A stretch of 64,000 bases of DNA from Escherichia phage PP01: the sequence record NC_054930.1, one strand, 5' to 3'. Position 1 is the first letter of the stretch; each line of letters starts with the position of its first letter. The notes beneath the pieces were generated by a model, which did not search any database, was not told the origin of the DNA, and was given only the letters and a program-made list of their open reading frames with translations. Made by a program: the position numbers and the translations under genes. Positions 31,737-37,186 of the stretch are shown piece after piece.

Positions 31737-31749
31737 GTTTTTCCTCCAT

Positions 31750-31785
31750 AGAGATTATACTCTAATAAATTAAAGTATAATCTCT
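31750..31785. promoter_or_regulatory. perfect 11-bp inverted repeat carrying TATAAT in both orientations
   Basis: AGAGATTATAC ... GTATAATCTCT separated by 14 nt, between gene 46 and the 45.2-rpbA-45 block. Confidence 0.4.
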
Positions 31786-31791
31786 TATAAA

Positions 31792-33474
31792 TTAAACCAT
31801 TACAGTAAATCGACCAACTTTCTTCATTTGAAGATGCTGACCATATGCTTGCGGGTCATGGTCTCTGTGTGAAATAACAAAAACATTAGTATTTTTTAAA
31901 CTATCTAAAATAGTTGAAATAGCTTTTACACCTTCAACATCGGTTGCTGAATCAAAAACTTCATCAAGAATTAATGTGTTTATTTTAACACCTGAAACTT
32001 TTTCAGCAATATCACGCCAAGTAAATAAAAGAGCAATATCAATTCGTGCTTTTTCACCTTGACTAAATGAAGCATAACTAAAATCTTCACGACCACGGGA
32101 TTTAATTGTCTCATTAAATTCTTCATCTAATGTAAACACATAATCCGCTTCCATTATTTTAAGATAATGGTTAATCTGCTTATTAAATAATGGAATGTAC
32201 TTTTTAATAATAGCACCTTTAATACCAGAATCTTTGAGCATATCAGTCAAAATTCCTCGGTGGTATTTTTCCATTACTAAATTAGTTTTTGTCTTAACAA
32301 TTTTATCAAGTTCTTCTTGAAGCAGTGCTATTTCATCAGCATGGTCAATAAACTCAGAAGATGCTTTTTCTATAGCCGCTTTAACCTTTTTAGCTTTATC
32401 TACCGTCGTGATTAGAGATTGCTTTTTATTGCGAATATCATTTGCCAACGACTGTTGGGTTTTAATATTATCTCGGTATTCATCAACAAGAACTTTTAAA
32501 TTATCACGATGTGTTGAAAGCTGTTCAAACGAATGCGTACATTCAGAAACTTTATCTTTAATTTTAGAAACAACTTTATCACCGGAACTTAATTGTGACA
32601 AACAGGTTGGACATAATCCACCTTCGTGATACATATTAATGACTTTATTATACGAGTCAATTTTTGATTTAATTAAAACTGCTTCTTGACCGATTTTATT
32701 AAATGCATCAGTAGGGTCTTCATCTAAAACAATATTAACTAATCTTTCGTTAGCTTCTTCTATTTCCGATTTTAGCGTTCTAGCTTCTTTTGCCAAATCA
32801 TCATACATATTTTGCAGACGAGTAAGGTTGTCACCCGTTAATTTTTTCTGGCGTTCAACGTTATCATTATATATTTTAATTTGTTGGATAATACTATCTT
32901 TTTTAACATCAAGCACTTGGTTCTGCGAATTTAATTCACGTATTAGTGCTTTATTAAGCTTATCCATTTCAGCTAATGTTCCTACCTCAAGCAAGTCTTC
33001 CACAAGCTTTCTTCGTGCAGGGGTCGACAAACCCATGAAAGGGGTATACCCTGCTGTACCAAGAACAACAATCTGCTTGAAACTGGCATATGACATTCCG
33101 ATAAGCTGTTCAAATTCTGCTTGGAAATCTTTACTGCTGGCAGATTCATTAAGACGTGTACCGTTAACGGTGATTTCGAAAACGTTTGGTTTTTGTCCTC
33201 TTTTGATATAGTACTTTTTCTCATCATATTCCATCCACAGTTCAACTAAAAGTTCTTTCTTATTTGTGCTGTTTATTAATTGACCTTTCTTTACATCACG
33301 AAATGGCTTGCCAAAAAGCCCAAATGTGATGGCTTCTAGCATAGTAGACTTACCACCGCCATTTCGCCCAGTAATAAGAGTTTTTTGAACCTTATCTAAT
33401 TGAATGTCAACTCCATTTTGACCAACTGACATTATATTTTTATATTTTACTCTATTAAGTTTAAATGATTTCAT
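31792..33474 (-). CDS. 46: recombination endonuclease subunit (Rad50/SbcC-like)
   Basis: 560 aa as in T4 gp46; Walker A GRNGGGKST, coiled coil, CPTC zinc hook. Confidence 0.9.
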   Translation of the reverse strand: MKSFKLNRVKYKNIMSVGQNGVDIQLDKVQKTLITGRNGGGKSTMLEAITFGLFGKPFRDVKKGQLINSTNKKELLVELWMEYDEKKYYIKRGQKPNVFEITVNGTRLNESASSKDFQAEFEQLIGMSYASFKQIVVLGTAGYTPFMGLSTPARRKLVEDLLEVGTLAEMDKLNKALIRELNSQNQVLDVKKDSIIQQIKIYNDNVERQKKLTGDNLTRLQNMYDDLAKEARTLKSEIEEANERLVNIVLDEDPTDAFNKIGQEAVLIKSKIDSYNKVINMYHEGGLCPTCLSQLSSGDKVVSKIKDKVSECTHSFEQLSTHRDNLKVLVDEYRDNIKTQQSLANDIRNKKQSLITTVDKAKKVKAAIEKASSEFIDHADEIALLQEELDKIVKTKTNLVMEKYHRGILTDMLKDSGIKGAIIKKYIPLFNKQINHYLKIMEADYVFTLDEEFNETIKSRGREDFSYASFSQGEKARIDIALLFTWRDIAEKVSGVKINTLILDEVFDSATDVEGVKAISTILDSLKNTNVFVISHRDHDPQAYGQHLQMKKVGRFTVMV

Positions 33475-33489
33475 TTTGTATCCAATTGT

Positions 33490-34344
33490 TCACAATGAAG
33501 AAAATTCTTTAACTAAAGCCTGTAATGAAGCCTCTATTGGATATCCATTCTTAACTAACATTTTCCTAAACATTACATGTTTAGGACGATTATATGATAT
33601 CCACAATTCATACAATTTATCTTTATTATCCCAATGATAGCCTTTTCGTCGAGATGCTATATGAGCTTTTCTAATCTCCGGATTTTTCCAACTAGCAGCT
33701 ACTGAATTTGATATAGCTATTTTATATTCAGGTTTTGATAAAGCAGCACGAACAGCCTTTTGGTGTTTAATTTTATTTTCTTCGTTATTAAACCATTCCC
33801 TTGAAGCCATTGAAATTTTTTGTTTTGTTTTAAAATTATTTAATCTTTCTTTATTATCTTTCCTATTTTTTGCTACTGAAAAATATTTTAATGCCCTTTC
33901 TCTAGCAGCATTTCTATTTTGCGGATTTGAATAATACTGTTGAAGCCTTTTTGATATTGTGTCACTTACATCTTGTTTTATAAAACTATATTCAGCAGCT
34001 ATTAAATCAACTTCGGCTAAAGATAAATTTTTATATGTTTTTCCTGACATCATTCTATTTAAAGCATTTAACATTTTTCCATTTTTACCTTTTGCTAATA
34101 AGAAGTGTGCTTTAAAATGATTAAAATGACTTAAATTAACTAAATTCCATGTAGATTTTAAATATTCAGGAAATATTGATTTAGGAAGCACGTGGTGTGC
34201 TTCCGTTTTACCTGGAGTTTTAACAGTTGAATTCACAGAAATAAAATTAATGTAAGACTTGGCGTCTTCTTCACTCAACGCTAATTTTTCAACTAATTCC
34301 TTTATTAAAAATTCATCATTAATGTCAAGTTTAAAATTCTTCAC
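33490..34344 (-). CDS. free-standing HNH homing endonuclease
   Basis: 284 aa; HNH motif EAHHVLPKS...NLVNLSHFNHFKAH; basic repeat-rich C-terminus; GTG start. Confidence 0.7.
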   Translation of the reverse strand: MKNFKLDINDEFLIKELVEKLALSEEDAKSYINFISVNSTVKTPGKTEAHHVLPKSIFPEYLKSTWNLVNLSHFNHFKAHFLLAKGKNGKMLNALNRMMSGKTYKNLSLAEVDLIAAEYSFIKQDVSDTISKRLQQYYSNPQNRNAARERALKYFSVAKNRKDNKERLNNFKTKQKISMASREWFNNEENKIKHQKAVRAALSKPEYKIAISNSVAASWKNPEIRKAHIASRRKGYHWDNKDKLYELWISYNRPKHVMFRKMLVKNGYPIEASLQALVKEFSSL

Positions 34345-34604
34345 AAAAGATTCCTTTTAATGTATCTTTTAGACCATTCTATCATATCATCATAATCTAA
34401 AAAGTATTCATCAAATTCAGCCATGCAAACAACACCTTGTGCTGTTTTTGATGTAATATAAATTATTCCAACATATCTAGAATCTTCTTCGGTATAATCA
34501 ATGTTTGCTATGAATTCATCATTAATGTCAAATGTCGAAAACTTCACAGTATGCATCCTTAATACAAGATACAGCCATATCTCGCAATGATTTAGGTGTG
34601 TCAT
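34341..34604 (-). CDS. small hypothetical protein (46.1/46.2-like)
   Basis: 87-aa ORF; contains FDINDEFI duplicated from the HNH gene N-terminus. Confidence 0.4.
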   Translation of the reverse strand: MTHLNHCEIWLYLVLRMHTVKFSTFDINDEFIANIDYTEEDSRYVGIIYITSKTAQGVVCMAEFDEYFLDYDDMIEWSKRYIKRNLL

Positions 34605-34791
34605 TATCTAAAATGTTGAAGTTAAAAGATACAGCCCAGTCAGTGCAGACCGTAACCTTTTTAATACAATTATCTTCAACCTCTAGCGGTTCAAACCAAT
34701 ATTCAATAATTTCTTTATGCCCAATATCATCTTTTACTTCGCATTCAAAATGCTGACTCATCATAACATTTTTAAATTCATCAAAAGTCAT
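34528..34791 (-). CDS. small hypothetical protein
   Basis: 87-aa ORF overlapping the gene 47 stop and the previous ORF. Confidence 0.4.
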   Translation of the reverse strand: MTFDEFKNVMMSQHFECEVKDDIGHKEIIEYWFEPLEVEDNCIKKVTVCTDWAVSFNFNILDNDTPKSLRDMAVSCIKDAYCEVFDI

Positions 34792-35807
34792 TGTGTTGCC
34801 TCTACATATAACTGATTTGCATATTGAATAAGTGCTTCGCGGTCAGAATCAGTGATGTCTGGAATTGCATTAATATATTCTTCCATCAACGTTTGAAGAG
34901 ATTGAACTTCAACTTCTTCACTATCATCTGACTCGACAGAGTTATCAATCTTTGACACAACTCGTAATGAATGCACAACTTTTTCTAGTTCAGATTCGAA
35001 CTTCGTTAGATTTTTGTCTACTTCAGTTACTATAACACGTACTGATAGATTTGTAAAATCTTTATAGTCAATTTTTCCTTTAAATGGATAATGAATTCTA
35101 CGATGCCAGGTAGTATTGTTTGGAATAAATTCCATTCGTTCTGTTTCTGTATCAAACATCCAGAACCCGCGAGGGTCATTCTCGTCACCTGCAGTTAGTG
35201 TCCATGGTGTCCCAATATATCTGACGTTTGCAGCCTCAGAAATAGTATGGAAGTGACCAGACCACACTTCTTTATAAGTCTTAAGGAAATCAGGTTCAAG
35301 ACCGTGAGATTTCATTCCTTTATAAAAATAAAATCCATTCAGTTCCCAGTGACCAACACAAAAAGAAGCAGATGAAGTTTTGATGTGTTCAAGAATTTCA
35401 CCAGTATTTTCTTCGCACATCCAAGGAATTAAATCAATCAAACATCCGTCAAAATCTACTGTAGTAGGCTTATCATATACTTTAACATTAGGATATTTAG
35501 CCAAAAGCTCAGTAGAAGCATTTGGAGTTAAAGTATTTTTAAAGTGCATATCATGGTTTCCTACAACAGTATGTAGGGTAATACCAGCATCATCAAGCAT
35601 TTGAACTATTTCACGAGCGAACTCCATAGTTTTATGCGTGATTGCTTTTCGCACATCAAAAATATCGCCGTATTGAATCCATGTAGTAATTCCGTTTTTC
35701 TTAGAATATTCTATTGCTTGTTTAATTCCATCCAACTGAATGGATTGAACCCACTCATCATCGGCTTTAACACCTAAATGCCAATCACCTAAATTTAAAA
35801 TTTTCAT
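34788..35807 (-). CDS. 47: recombination nuclease subunit (Mre11/SbcD-like phosphoesterase)
   Basis: 339 aa as in T4 gp47; metallophosphoesterase motifs GDWH, GNHD. Confidence 0.9.
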   Translation of the reverse strand: MKILNLGDWHLGVKADDEWVQSIQLDGIKQAIEYSKKNGITTWIQYGDIFDVRKAITHKTMEFAREIVQMLDDAGITLHTVVGNHDMHFKNTLTPNASTELLAKYPNVKVYDKPTTVDFDGCLIDLIPWMCEENTGEILEHIKTSSASFCVGHWELNGFYFYKGMKSHGLEPDFLKTYKEVWSGHFHTISEAANVRYIGTPWTLTAGDENDPRGFWMFDTETERMEFIPNNTTWHRRIHYPFKGKIDYKDFTNLSVRVIVTEVDKNLTKFESELEKVVHSLRVVSKIDNSVESDDSEEVEVQSLQTLMEEYINAIPDITDSDREALIQYANQLYVEATQ

Positions 35808-35966
35808 ATATCAAGAACCGTCATTGAAATGCAAAATAAAATTATTGAAATAAATCCATCTGGAGTACTAAAGAACCCAATCCAACATGCTCTGGTGAAT
35901 AGATAAAACGCTAGAAAAAGTATCACATATCCAAGAAATATCATTATATCAAACTCCGTATAAAGC

Positions 35967-35984: not shown

Positions 35985-37186
35985 TATTTTGTAATAATGT
36001 CAAACTGTTCTTTAAAGCAGAAGCTTGAATCTTGATGCTGATACAAAAATTCATAAGCTTTTTCGCGTTCACGGTCATAAAGAGCTCGGTCAGATGACAG
36101 TTCTTTAATACGCTCAAATGTTGATTCCATGTCATTTTCATCAAACCAAACGATACCGCTATCATGAGAAATTAACGGAGTATTATCAACACGGAATTTT
36201 AAATTTTCGCCAGTAGATTTCCAAAATACCGGAATTGTTCCACACGCACCAAGCTCGAGATGAGTATATTCTAAAGAACGCTGTAGATATTTTTTATCTA
36301 ATTTACTCAGCTGATAACCAAATCCGGATTTACTCATGCGTTCAAGCATTTCGCTATTTACATAACGGTCGAGAATTTGCGTTGGCAAATTAGGAGCAAT
36401 TTTAATTTGGTCTACTTGATGAAGACGATAATACTCGTATGGAATTCCTTTTTCTTTAATAGGAATGAACGCTGGAGAACGTTCCAGACCTTCCATAACA
36501 GTACTTAGTCCTGCAGGTTTAAGATGTTTTTCGTGAAAATCAAACATCTGATAAAAGCCTTTCCATGTAGTAGTACGACCAATCCAACGGTTGATATTCA
36601 TGTTAATTTCAGAAACATCTTTCCAGTAAGTTGATCGAACCTTCGCAATATCCATAGGAGGCTGAAAGTTATATACGGTCGGTGCTTCTTCAATATCATC
36701 AAACAAAGAAACTGTTTCTGGATACCATTCTTTCATTAAAACTTTATTAAAATCACCATTATCAGAATGGCTAAAAATAACATCAGCTCGACGAACAGTT
36801 TCTTCTAATCCCAAATTTCGGCGCAAAGAAAGAGAAGAATGGTCATGTTGATAAACTACAACACGAACCGAAGGTTTAATGTTATCAATAATTTTTTTAT
36901 AGTTATTAATCGTGTCTTCTTCAACTGAAGTAGCAGGAACTGAATTGATAATTAGAATATCACAATCATTTACCAACTTAAGTGTTTTATCGTATTCTTT
37001 TGCCAATAAAACCGGAATTGAAAATGACTTATAATCATGTGCGCAATTACGAGTAAATGATTTATCTTTAGCATAAACCAAAGTTACTTCATGACCATTT
37101 TTAATAAACCAATCACGTTGCTCAAGAGAAAATTTAGTTACACCACAACCTTCAAGACCTCGAGCCATAAAAATGCATACTTTCAT
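35984..37186 (-). CDS. a-gt: alpha-glucosyltransferase
   Basis: 400 aa as in T4 alpha-gt; position after gene 47. Confidence 0.85.
   Translation of the reverse strand: MKVCIFMARGLEGCGVTKFSLEQRDWFIKNGHEVTLVYAKDKSFTRNCAHDYKSFSIPVLLAKEYDKTLKLVNDCDILIINSVPATSVEEDTINNYKKIIDNIKPSVRVVVYQHDHSSLSLRRNLGLEETVRRADVIFSHSDNGDFNKVLMKEWYPETVSLFDDIEEAPTVYNFQPPMDIAKVRSTYWKDVSEINMNINRWIGRTTTWKGFYQMFDFHEKHLKPAGLSTVMEGLERSPAFIPIKEKGIPYEYYRLHQVDQIKIAPNLPTQILDRYVNSEMLERMSKSGFGYQLSKLDKKYLQRSLEYTHLELGACGTIPVFWKSTGENLKFRVDNTPLISHDSGIVWFDENDMESTFERIKELSSDRALYDREREKAYEFLYQHQDSSFCFKEQFDIITK

Follow-up and report, generated by a model that had tools for sequence, protein, structure and literature searches.

The window analyzed here is a stretch of 64,000 nt from Escherichia phage PP01 (NC_054930.1), and the element in question is an open reading frame (ORF) of 284 amino acids at the start of recombination gene 46. 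A first-pass annotation, which was made from the letters alone, had read this ORF as an HNH homing-endonuclease gene wedged between the genes 46 and 47, and the ORF was indeed found there, more exactly between 46.1 and 46. The best explanation of the locus, to which we assign a probability of about 0.7, is that a free-standing homing endonuclease of the Mob family resides on a cassette of 870 bp inside the start of gene 46, the original start of this gene having been captured by the endonuclease and a replacement start being supplied by the cassette. The features on which this reading depends are the following:

33457..34326, minus strand: cassette of 870 bp (alignment with T4, AR1 and T2, and the exact empty site of BCH953P2)
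33490..34344, minus strand: endonuclease ORF, intact, 284 amino acids, GTG start and TGA stop (ORF listing, PHROG 655, tblastn)
31792..33474, minus strand: gene 46, Rad50/SbcC-like recombination nuclease subunit, 560 amino acids, complete, starting with MKSFKL (ORF listing, annotation of relatives)
34327..34344, minus strand: captured leader GTGAAGAATTTTAAACTT (MKNFKL), the original gene 46 start with its first six codons, which now begin the endonuclease (comparison with T4 and BCH953P2)
33466..33489, minus strand: substitute start of gene 46, a 15-nt spacer ACAATTGGATACAAA followed by ATGAAATCA (cassette-linked records, likeness to RB69)
34327..34335, minus strand: 9-bp direct repeat TTTAAACTT, left copy, which forms codons 4-6 of the captured leader
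33457..33465, minus strand: right copy of the same repeat, codons 4-6 of the present gene 46

The cassette is a clean 870-bp presence/absence polymorphism, which is carried by about one in eight of the T4-like (Tequatrovirus) records. Positions 33000-35200 of the window matched 561 phage records, and the whole 2201 nt were present in 70 of them; nearly all others, including T4, RB59, RB3, AR1 and wV7, covered 1331 nt in two pieces, the difference being 870 bp. A copy of the endonuclease with at least 90% identity was likewise detected by tblastn in 70 records. The boundaries were defined against empty-site genomes, and the flanking repeat lets them slide by up to 9 nt. An exact empty site is provided by the Tequatrovirus BCH953P2, whose sequence agrees fully with that of the window on either side of the insertion point, the 870 bp being absent. 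In T4 and AR1 the site reads ...AAAAGGAATCTTTTGTGAAGAATTTTAAACT(T/A) AA..., and the insertion point is spanned by TTTTGTGAAGAATTTTAAACT(T/A)|AA...; the window carries the same sequence up to and including AAACTT and then continues with GACATTAATGATGAA... of the endonuclease. At its 3' end the insert reads ...TCTTCATTGTGA ACAATTGGATACAAA ATGAAATCATTTAAACTT, and gene 46 sequence then picks up at AATAGAGTAAAATAT. The insertion point is thus located in gene 46, after codon 6. Related genomes with and without the insert do not share one arrangement, the alignment showing an indel polymorphism with sharp boundaries, and together with the family matches given below this supports the insertion of homing-endonuclease type proposed in the first-pass annotation.

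The endonuclease is the only ORF of the cassette. Compared with the Tequatrovirus genomes RB51, RB68, PhiZZ23 and T2 the interval shows 98.5-99.2% identity, and the cassette itself is 97-100% identical among phages with differing flanking alleles. No extended cassette-linked haplotype was detected at a resolution of 200 nt, the genomes being mosaics of 96-100% identity. The copy in the window is intact, whereas those of T2, SV76, RB68, G2133 and P8 are frameshifted or truncated. The cassette ends showed no terminal inverted repeats, and a transposon-type insertion with target-site duplication was ruled out, as the 9 bp belong to a longer duplication of 18 nt with five differences between its copies. 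An endonuclease encoded within an intron or intein was ruled out as well: 855 of the 870 nt are ORF, its TGA stop is followed by the 15-nt spacer and a new ATG from which gene 46 begins, and an Rfam search of positions 33200-34900 returned no intron or other RNA family.

The leader of the endonuclease derives from gene 46. It is identical to the gene 46 start of T4 and BCH953P2 in 18 of 18 nt, and in the T4 RefSeq record gene 46 begins at the same GTG, overlaps the stop codon of the preceding gene 46.1 as GTGA and encodes a protein starting with MKNFKLNRV. The GTG now used by the endonuclease has retained both the Shine-Dalgarno sequence of gene 46 and the GTGA overlap with the 46.1 stop. In all genera examined gp46 begins with MK(S/T/N)FKLNRV, and a three-way alignment of the window endonuclease with homologs from Gelderlandvirus and Mosigvirus left the MKNFKL leader without a counterpart in the other two; both observations argue for an assignment of the leader to gene 46. 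Outside the cassette the window differs from T4 only at codons 21-22 of gene 46, and BCH953P2 has the same codons 21-22.

In exchange the cassette carries at its 3' end a Shine-Dalgarno-like site and a new gene 46 start (ATG AAA TCA TTT AAA CTT; MKSFKL), so that gene 46 remains whole and its first six codons are present twice. The two leader copies have 13 of 18 nt in common, with the flanking repeat TTTAAACTT exact over 9 bp, and belong to different gene 46 lineages. The part of the query which contains the start ATGAAATCA was covered by exactly 70 records, equal to the number of cassette carriers, and all empty-site Tequatroviruses among the matches listed align only from TTTAAACTT onward. 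A start of the ATGAAATCA type was seen in RB69, in Klebsiella phages and in a Proteus phage. Moreover, ATACAAAATGAAATCATTTAAA resembles the end of 46.1 and the start of 46 in RB69, ATACATATGAAATCATTTAAA, with a local score that was reached by one of 5000 shuffles. On the basis of these RB69-like bases in front of the new start, the cassette seems to come from a lineage with such a gene 46 start. As a test of co-conversion this start is of a non-Tequatrovirus type, but it is located within the 870 bp. A duplicated flank at the endonuclease start had been claimed by the first-pass annotation as well; part of the flank is in fact duplicated, though the source is the six codons of gene 46 (GTGAAGAATTTTAAACTT and ATGAAATCATTTAAACTT) and not a segment of 46.1. 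As far as our literature search showed, this tidy way of a cassette into the coding start of an essential gene is undescribed.

By sequence comparison the 284-aa ORF is a free-standing homing endonuclease gene of the T4 Mob type with an HNH motif, and thus an uncharacterized member of a well-known class. The profile PHROG 655 ('homing endonuclease') matches residues 1-282 with an E-value of 7.8e-45. In tblastn searches the ORF showed 30% identity to T4 MobD over residues 47-281 (83% of the query, E 2e-11 to 3e-11) and 36% to MobC of Yersinia phage PST, and many proteins annotated as 'Mob-like HNH' were among the matches. The cluster of proteins identical to the product of the window comprises 85 members. 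In an alignment of 25 homologs with 18-35% identity, H50, H51, H76 and H80 are invariant and E48, L53, P54, E60, N67, L71 and L83 nearly so; several of the homologs also contain the DNA-binding motif NUMOD3. An AlphaFold model built on this alignment reached a mean pLDDT of 73.5 overall and 90-93 over residues 31-80, and the conserved residues sit on its strands 47-51 and 68-72 and its helix 73-84. As modeled, the conserved His and Asn residues are placed in the beta-beta-alpha arrangement of HNH nucleases, which delimits a putative active center:

34096..34203, minus strand: putative HNH (beta-beta-alpha-metal) catalytic core, E48 to L83, EAHHVLPKSIFPEY...WNLVNLSHFNHFKAHFLL (invariant residues and AlphaFold model)

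Close relatives of the endonuclease were absent from IMG/VR, a metagenome search returned only distant HNH-motif proteins with 29-61% identity over short stretches, and a word-indexed protein search yielded few relatives. A tally from 2010 lists for T2 a single putative endonuclease gene, in the class 'other HNH', and for RB51 one in that class (PMC2993671). The gene counted for T2 is probably the endonuclease of the present cassette; apart from this tally, our literature search yielded no published description of the gene.

A perfect 8-bp hairpin, GGAAGCAC-ACCAC-GUGCUUCC, was noted in the minus-strand mRNA at 34184-34204 (-13.6 kcal/mol, z = -4.7, none of 200 shuffles folding as well). It coincides exactly with the codons of the catalytic E-A-H-H-V-L-P motif and is absent from the homologs in Mosigvirus and Gelderlandvirus.

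Directly at the junction lies a patch which may mark both the target and a co-conversion tract:

33409..33456, minus strand: codons 7-22 of gene 46, dimorphic patch, putative co-conversion tract and candidate target region

Within these approximately 47 nt the T4-type and AR1-type alleles diverge by about 30% at the nucleotide level, while the flanks are about 98% identical. The two allele types, YKNIMSVGQN and YQNIMSVGGNP, recur across the border between Tequatrovirus and Mosigvirus. YKNIMSVGQN is found in the window and in Mosigvirus pEK20, one cassette-bearing genome having been examined per genus, and YQNIMSVGGNP in the cassette-free RB69. Cassette-free Mosigvirus genomes match pEK20 with 85-88% identity over 109 nt covering the first 110 nt of gene 46, compared with about 95% overall. 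These patterns are suggestive of, but no proof for, codons 7-22 as the target and co-conversion region.

The mechanism which we propose would begin with the neighbors' transcripts. Neither in the cassette nor in the neighboring genes was a late-promoter box found, and sigma-70-like matches did not exceed the shuffled expectation. The cassette showed no terminator of its own and no start-masking structure, neither start being sequestered. As promoter signals of its own were not found and the starts are unmasked, the cassette would ride on the 47-46 transcripts, being transcribed with the unit 47-46.2-46.1-46 and translated by coupling to 46.1. Transcription with the neighbors and coupled translation have been suggested for a number of mob and seg genes of T4 (PMC2988022). 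In a mixed infection the enzyme would then nick or cut cassette-free gene 46 alleles near the 5' end, a position expected by analogy with MobE, which nicks the 5' region of the neighboring nrdB and is inherited with flanking polymorphisms (PMC2790892). Recombinational repair from cassette-bearing genomes would copy in the cassette together with adjacent gene 46 codons, and the cassette-bearing allele would be immune since the site is split or altered. Both the cleavage activity and the target site are putative.

The closest characterized systems are the T4 endonucleases MobA-E, among them MobD, MobC and the characterized MobE (Wilson and Edgell, 2009, PMC2790892; Edgell et al., 2010, PMC2988022), which belong to the same sequence family. 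Like the T4 Mob genes, the window gene is free-standing and promoter-less, has the orientation of its neighbors, overlaps the upstream gene with its start and lies beside an essential gene of DNA metabolism. Its locus is 46.1/46 and not nrdA/nrdB as for T4 mobE, and the window enzyme is known from sequence. In contrast to the T4 Mob genes, it is located inside the first codons of its target gene, uses the start of this gene and carries a replacement. A further difference is the internal terminator of T4 mobE (PMC2790892), whereas the internal hairpin of the window cassette is not followed by a U tract on the sense strand. Intronless homing was described for T4 SegF (genes 56/69) and SegG (genes 32/59; Belle 2002 and Liu 2003, as listed in PMC2993671). 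There, too, a free-standing endonuclease gene is the neighbor of an essential gene, in which cassette-free relatives are cut; polymorphisms nearby are co-converted, and the competing allele suffers local exclusion. However, SegF and SegG are GIY-YIG enzymes with mapped cleavage sites, while the window enzyme is of the HNH type and its site is deduced from the dimorphic patch. Aeromonas phage Aeh1 offers a third comparison with its mobE in nrdA, known as 'genes in pieces' (Crona et al., 2010, PMC3045599): a Mob-type gene likewise lies inside an essential coding sequence, and insertion-derived sequences are needed to keep the host gene working, as in the window. The Aeh1 nrdA is split into two polypeptides which reassemble via new tails, whereas gene 46 of the window is a single complete ORF with six upstream codons duplicated. 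For SegF and SegG, we know of no duplicated start.

The closest paralogs of the endonuclease (42-44% amino acid identity over the full length) occupy the same locus upstream of gene 46 in Mosigvirus and Gelderlandvirus. In Mosigvirus pEK20 the order is 47 - 46.2 - endonuclease - 46, without 46.1; the endonuclease was found in 10 of 156 Mosigvirus records (pEK20 and nine others), and the remainder carry 46.1 in its place. The Mosigvirus endonuclease and RB69 46.1 have the first seven codons in common (MTKTDYE, 23 of 24 nt), and these two alternative cassettes possess one leader (pEK20 endonuclease, L004 1444-1470). In Gelderlandvirus UoN_LG358_1 genes 47 and 46 are separated by the homolog alone, which begins with an ATG of its own in overlap with the gene 47 stop codon and has the N-terminus MIDAETILKAAFPQWEG. 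Like the window gene, both homologs are located immediately upstream of gene 46, and the one in Mosigvirus is patchily distributed. Unlike the window endonuclease, the Mosigvirus homolog takes the place of 46.1 and uses its first codons, and the Gelderlandvirus homolog has an ATG of its own at the gene 47 stop. The 3' ends of both overlap the gene 46 start, whereas the window cassette delivers a new start behind a spacer. Compared with var2, the variant of 46.1 on the Tequatrovirus-like metagenome contigs L021, L022 and L024 (positions 2501-2720), RB69 46.1 (L007 545-784) contains an insertion of 18 nt (DYEIHR).

The first-pass annotation had also drawn attention to two similar peptides and a 19-nt direct repeat about 210 bp apart. 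Both peptides are present as described, the translation of the 284-aa ORF starting with MKNFKLDINDEFLI from its GTG initiation codon and the small neighboring ORF including VKFSTFDINDEFIA. The repeat is exact and far above chance, although the spacing is 203 bp. Written as TTGACATTAATGATGAATT, the reverse complement of the string given before, it occurs exactly twice in the window:

34310..34328, minus strand: endonuclease copy, last 2 nt of codon 6 to second base of codon 12, DINDEF
34513..34531, minus strand: 46.1 copy at the same codon positions, also present in T4, AR1 and BCH953P2

A chance origin was rejected, since 0.01 occurrences were expected even if two mismatches were allowed and none of 100 shuffles reached two matches. 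The likeness extends over 45 nt at 78% identity (34301-34345 versus 34504-34548). A tandem duplication of about 203 bp was likewise rejected, as only these 5' 45 nt are alike and the body of 46.1 has no second copy. Both ORFs start with GTGAAG, and the peptides specified by their codons 7-12 are similar. A BLASTP comparison of the two window proteins gave 14 of 39 identities with an E-value of 3e-4, a weak lead which is driven by the 12 shared residues, and family-level homology between 46.1 and the endonuclease was not detected by hhalign (probability 0.2%). In the three-way alignment the residues I8-N9-D10-E11-F12 of the window stand opposite IDAET and TDYET, and INDEFLIK aligns with IDAETILK of MIDAETILK, the N-terminus of the Gelderlandvirus homolog. 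The peptide from about residue 8 onward (INDEF...) therefore looks native to the enzyme. At the position of the repeat the 46.1 family shows FDINDEF (T4 type), FNLDDEF (var2) and FSIGDGY (RB69). The most probable origin of the 19 nt is recombination or gene conversion over a short tract, which may have run in either direction, between the 5' ends of the adjacent genes, these ends being similar. T4-type and var2 46.1 differ almost exclusively in the first 27 nt, where RB69 is nearer to var2, and the first 36 nt of T4-type 46.1 agree with the endonuclease in 29 positions and with var2 46.1 in 24. These figures lean toward a transfer from the endonuclease to 46.1, in which case the cassette would have resided in the genus for a long time. 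The identity has not been kept everywhere: the endonuclease copy of T2 reads GAT instead of GAC, and the 46.1 copy is changed in P8 and SHFML-11.

The preferred reading of a cassette inserted into the gene 46 start has to be weighed against several points. Searches of the ORF with curated HNH models returned only a sub-threshold putAbiC match from Pfam and no match from NCBIfam, and there was none among PDB sequences. Phage records, IMG/VR and metagenomes yielded no donor genome in which this cassette stands in a simpler context. GTG 34344 and ATG 33474 are putative starts, assigned from annotation and sequence. Finally, the polarity is ambiguous, as a deletion between the TTTAAACTT copies recreates the T4-type empty site exactly and some empty sites may be losses.

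Carried to its end, the last point would mean that the cassette layout is old in Tequatrovirus, that the T4-type empty sites arose by deletion across the TTTAAACTT repeat and that the 5' end of T4-type 46.1 was overwritten from the endonuclease start. We consider this unlikely, though worth keeping in view. The deletion across the 9 bp would yield the BCH953P2/T4 sequence exactly, many cassette copies are decaying, the var2 form of 46.1 (AATCTTGAC, NLD) is nearer to the RB69 outgroup than the T4-type GACATTAAT, and T4-type 46.1 is nearer to the endonuclease than to var2 in the 36-nt comparison given above. However, nearly all of the approximately 490 cassette-free Tequatrovirus records would need ancestors that carried the cassette. 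MKNFKL is moreover native to gene 46, and GTGAAGAAT is thus an ordinary gene 46 start and not an endonuclease relic. The very low diversity of the cassette (97-100% identity) fits recent spread better than ancient residence.

A mechanistically attractive, but in our estimation rather improbable alternative proceeds from an older fusion, in which the cassette replaced the body of 46.1 and was joined to its first 12 codons (46.2 - [46.1 leader::endonuclease] - 46). A broken gene 46 end of a cassette-free phage would later have primed in register on this leader, which would have produced the present tandem layout and restored 46.1. Exactly such a layout exists in Mosigvirus, with the endonuclease in place of 46.1 and the common MTKTDYE start, and a deletion between the two 19-nt copies of the window would produce it. 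The leaders of 46 and 46.1, 12 of 18 nt being identical and both ending in TT, could explain a junction in register. Yet a Tequatrovirus with this layout was found neither in 50,697 phage records nor, by exact pattern, in IMG/VR, and all full-length matches of a synthetic 46.1 leader::endonuclease junction to the phage collection consisted of two pieces 203 bp apart. The alignment of INDEF with IDAET and TDYET makes the peptide look native rather than borrowed, and the fusion points in 46.1 coordinates differ between the two genera.

It is very unlikely that the ORF is not, or no longer, a mobile nuclease but a domesticated DNA-binding or regulatory protein whose polymorphism reflects ordinary mosaic recombination. 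The lack of a matching curated HNH model or solved nuclease structure would be in line with such a role, as would an ORF that is intact and nearly invariant in most carriers. On the other hand, the catalytic-type His and Asn residues are invariant (N67 nearly) across the 25 distant homologs, the frameshifts that arose independently in several lineages speak against a function which the phage needs, and homing would be expected to leave just such a pattern, with patchy occurrence at one site in three genera and flanking codons of foreign origin.

Least probable of all is the proposal of the first-pass annotation that the 19-nt repeat is the footprint of the insertion, i.e., a copy of its target, or a recent local duplication which created the endonuclease start: the repeat is real and non-random, with both copies at codons 6-12 of ORFs starting with GTGAAG, but the boundaries against T4, AR1 and BCH953P2 lie at codon 6/7 of gene 46 and not in 46.1, the 46.1 copy stands unchanged in these insert-free phages at a distance of 203 bp from the junction, the likeness is confined to the 19 nt (45 nt at 78%) without any 203-bp tandem duplication, start and first six codons match gene 46 in 18 of 18 nt, and INDEF aligns with the native N-terminus of endonucleases from other genera.

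Returning to the insertion into gene 46, a bolder and doubtful extension would regard the 5' end of this gene as a recurrent landing pad, on which successive promoter-less cassettes capture the start and the first approximately six codons and hand gene 46 a spare start. Gene 46.1 would be the fossil of an earlier round and the endonuclease the latest arrival, and breaks made by this family at that spot would drive the process and also the swapping of 5' ends of gene 46 between genera. That 46.1 itself may be an older cassette is suggested, with modest support, by the var2 contigs, on which the start of 46.1 (ATGAAGACTTTT...) matches the start of gene 46 (GTGAAGACTTTT...). The var2 46.1 start ATGAAGACTTTTGAATTT (MKTFEFNLDDEF) and the gene 46 start GTGAAGACTTTTAAGCTT (MKTFKLK) have an in-register 11-mer in common, the score of which was reached by 35 of 5000 shuffles.

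The gp46/47 nuclease of T4 recombination processes the breaks on which homing depends, and the element therefore depends on the very gene that it invades. Free-standing homing endonucleases shape which markers survive the co-infection of related phages, and the layout proposed here would be a simple and harmless entry into an essential coding sequence for a cassette without a promoter or ribosome site of its own. Nothing known is overturned by the cassette. It is of use for the annotation of phage genomes, in which gene 46 starts and the endonuclease ORF are inconsistently annotated, and for the design of insertions into T4-like phages. In the GenBank record of RB51 (FJ839693), for example, the endonuclease interval (L008 4476-5340) is unannotated, and many cassette-free records (e.g., L014, L016 and L017) place the gene 46 start at an internal ATG (Met15, 1641 nt) and not at the GTG of T4 RefSeq (1683 nt).

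All genes of the interval, 47, 46.2, 46.1, the 284-aa ORF and 46, are encoded on the minus strand. The genes upstream of the cassette are:

34788..35807, minus strand: gene 47, Mre11/SbcD-like subunit (ORF listing and relatives)
34528..34791, minus strand: gene 46.2 (PF25721)
34341..34547, minus strand: gene 46.1 (DUF5487), 68 amino acids, GTG start (Pfam PF17589, E 4.5e-50; T4 RefSeq)

Gene 46.1 was found in phages with and without the cassette. A longer form of 87 amino acids, which starts with an ATG and extends to 34604, is probably not a real gene. The 68-aa form from GTG 34547 is favored because residues 1-66 take up the full 66-position profile of PF17589, so that the Pfam model spans this form end to end, and because 46.1 has a length of 207 nt in T4 RefSeq.

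Two further dimorphic patches were observed in the neighborhood. One comprises the 3' end of gene 46 (31801-32084) and positions 31737-31791, with 77-84% identity to RB51, PhiZZ30, SHFML-11, T4, PYPS2T and AR1 and 98-100% to T2, G2133, P8 and FL33. In RB51 and PhiZZ30 this place, between 45.2 and 46, is occupied by a mobB-like endonuclease gene of opposite orientation, where the window has only a 55-nt spacer. The other, in the 5' part of gene 47 (35478-35877), shows 87-92% identity to T2, SHFML-11, T4, PYPS2T and PhiZZ30 and 96-100% to RB51, G2133, P8, AR1 and FL33. At 36278-36477, in the alpha-glucosyltransferase gene, T4 is 72% identical to the window and all other compared phages are 96-100% identical, the allele of the window being the common non-T4 type.

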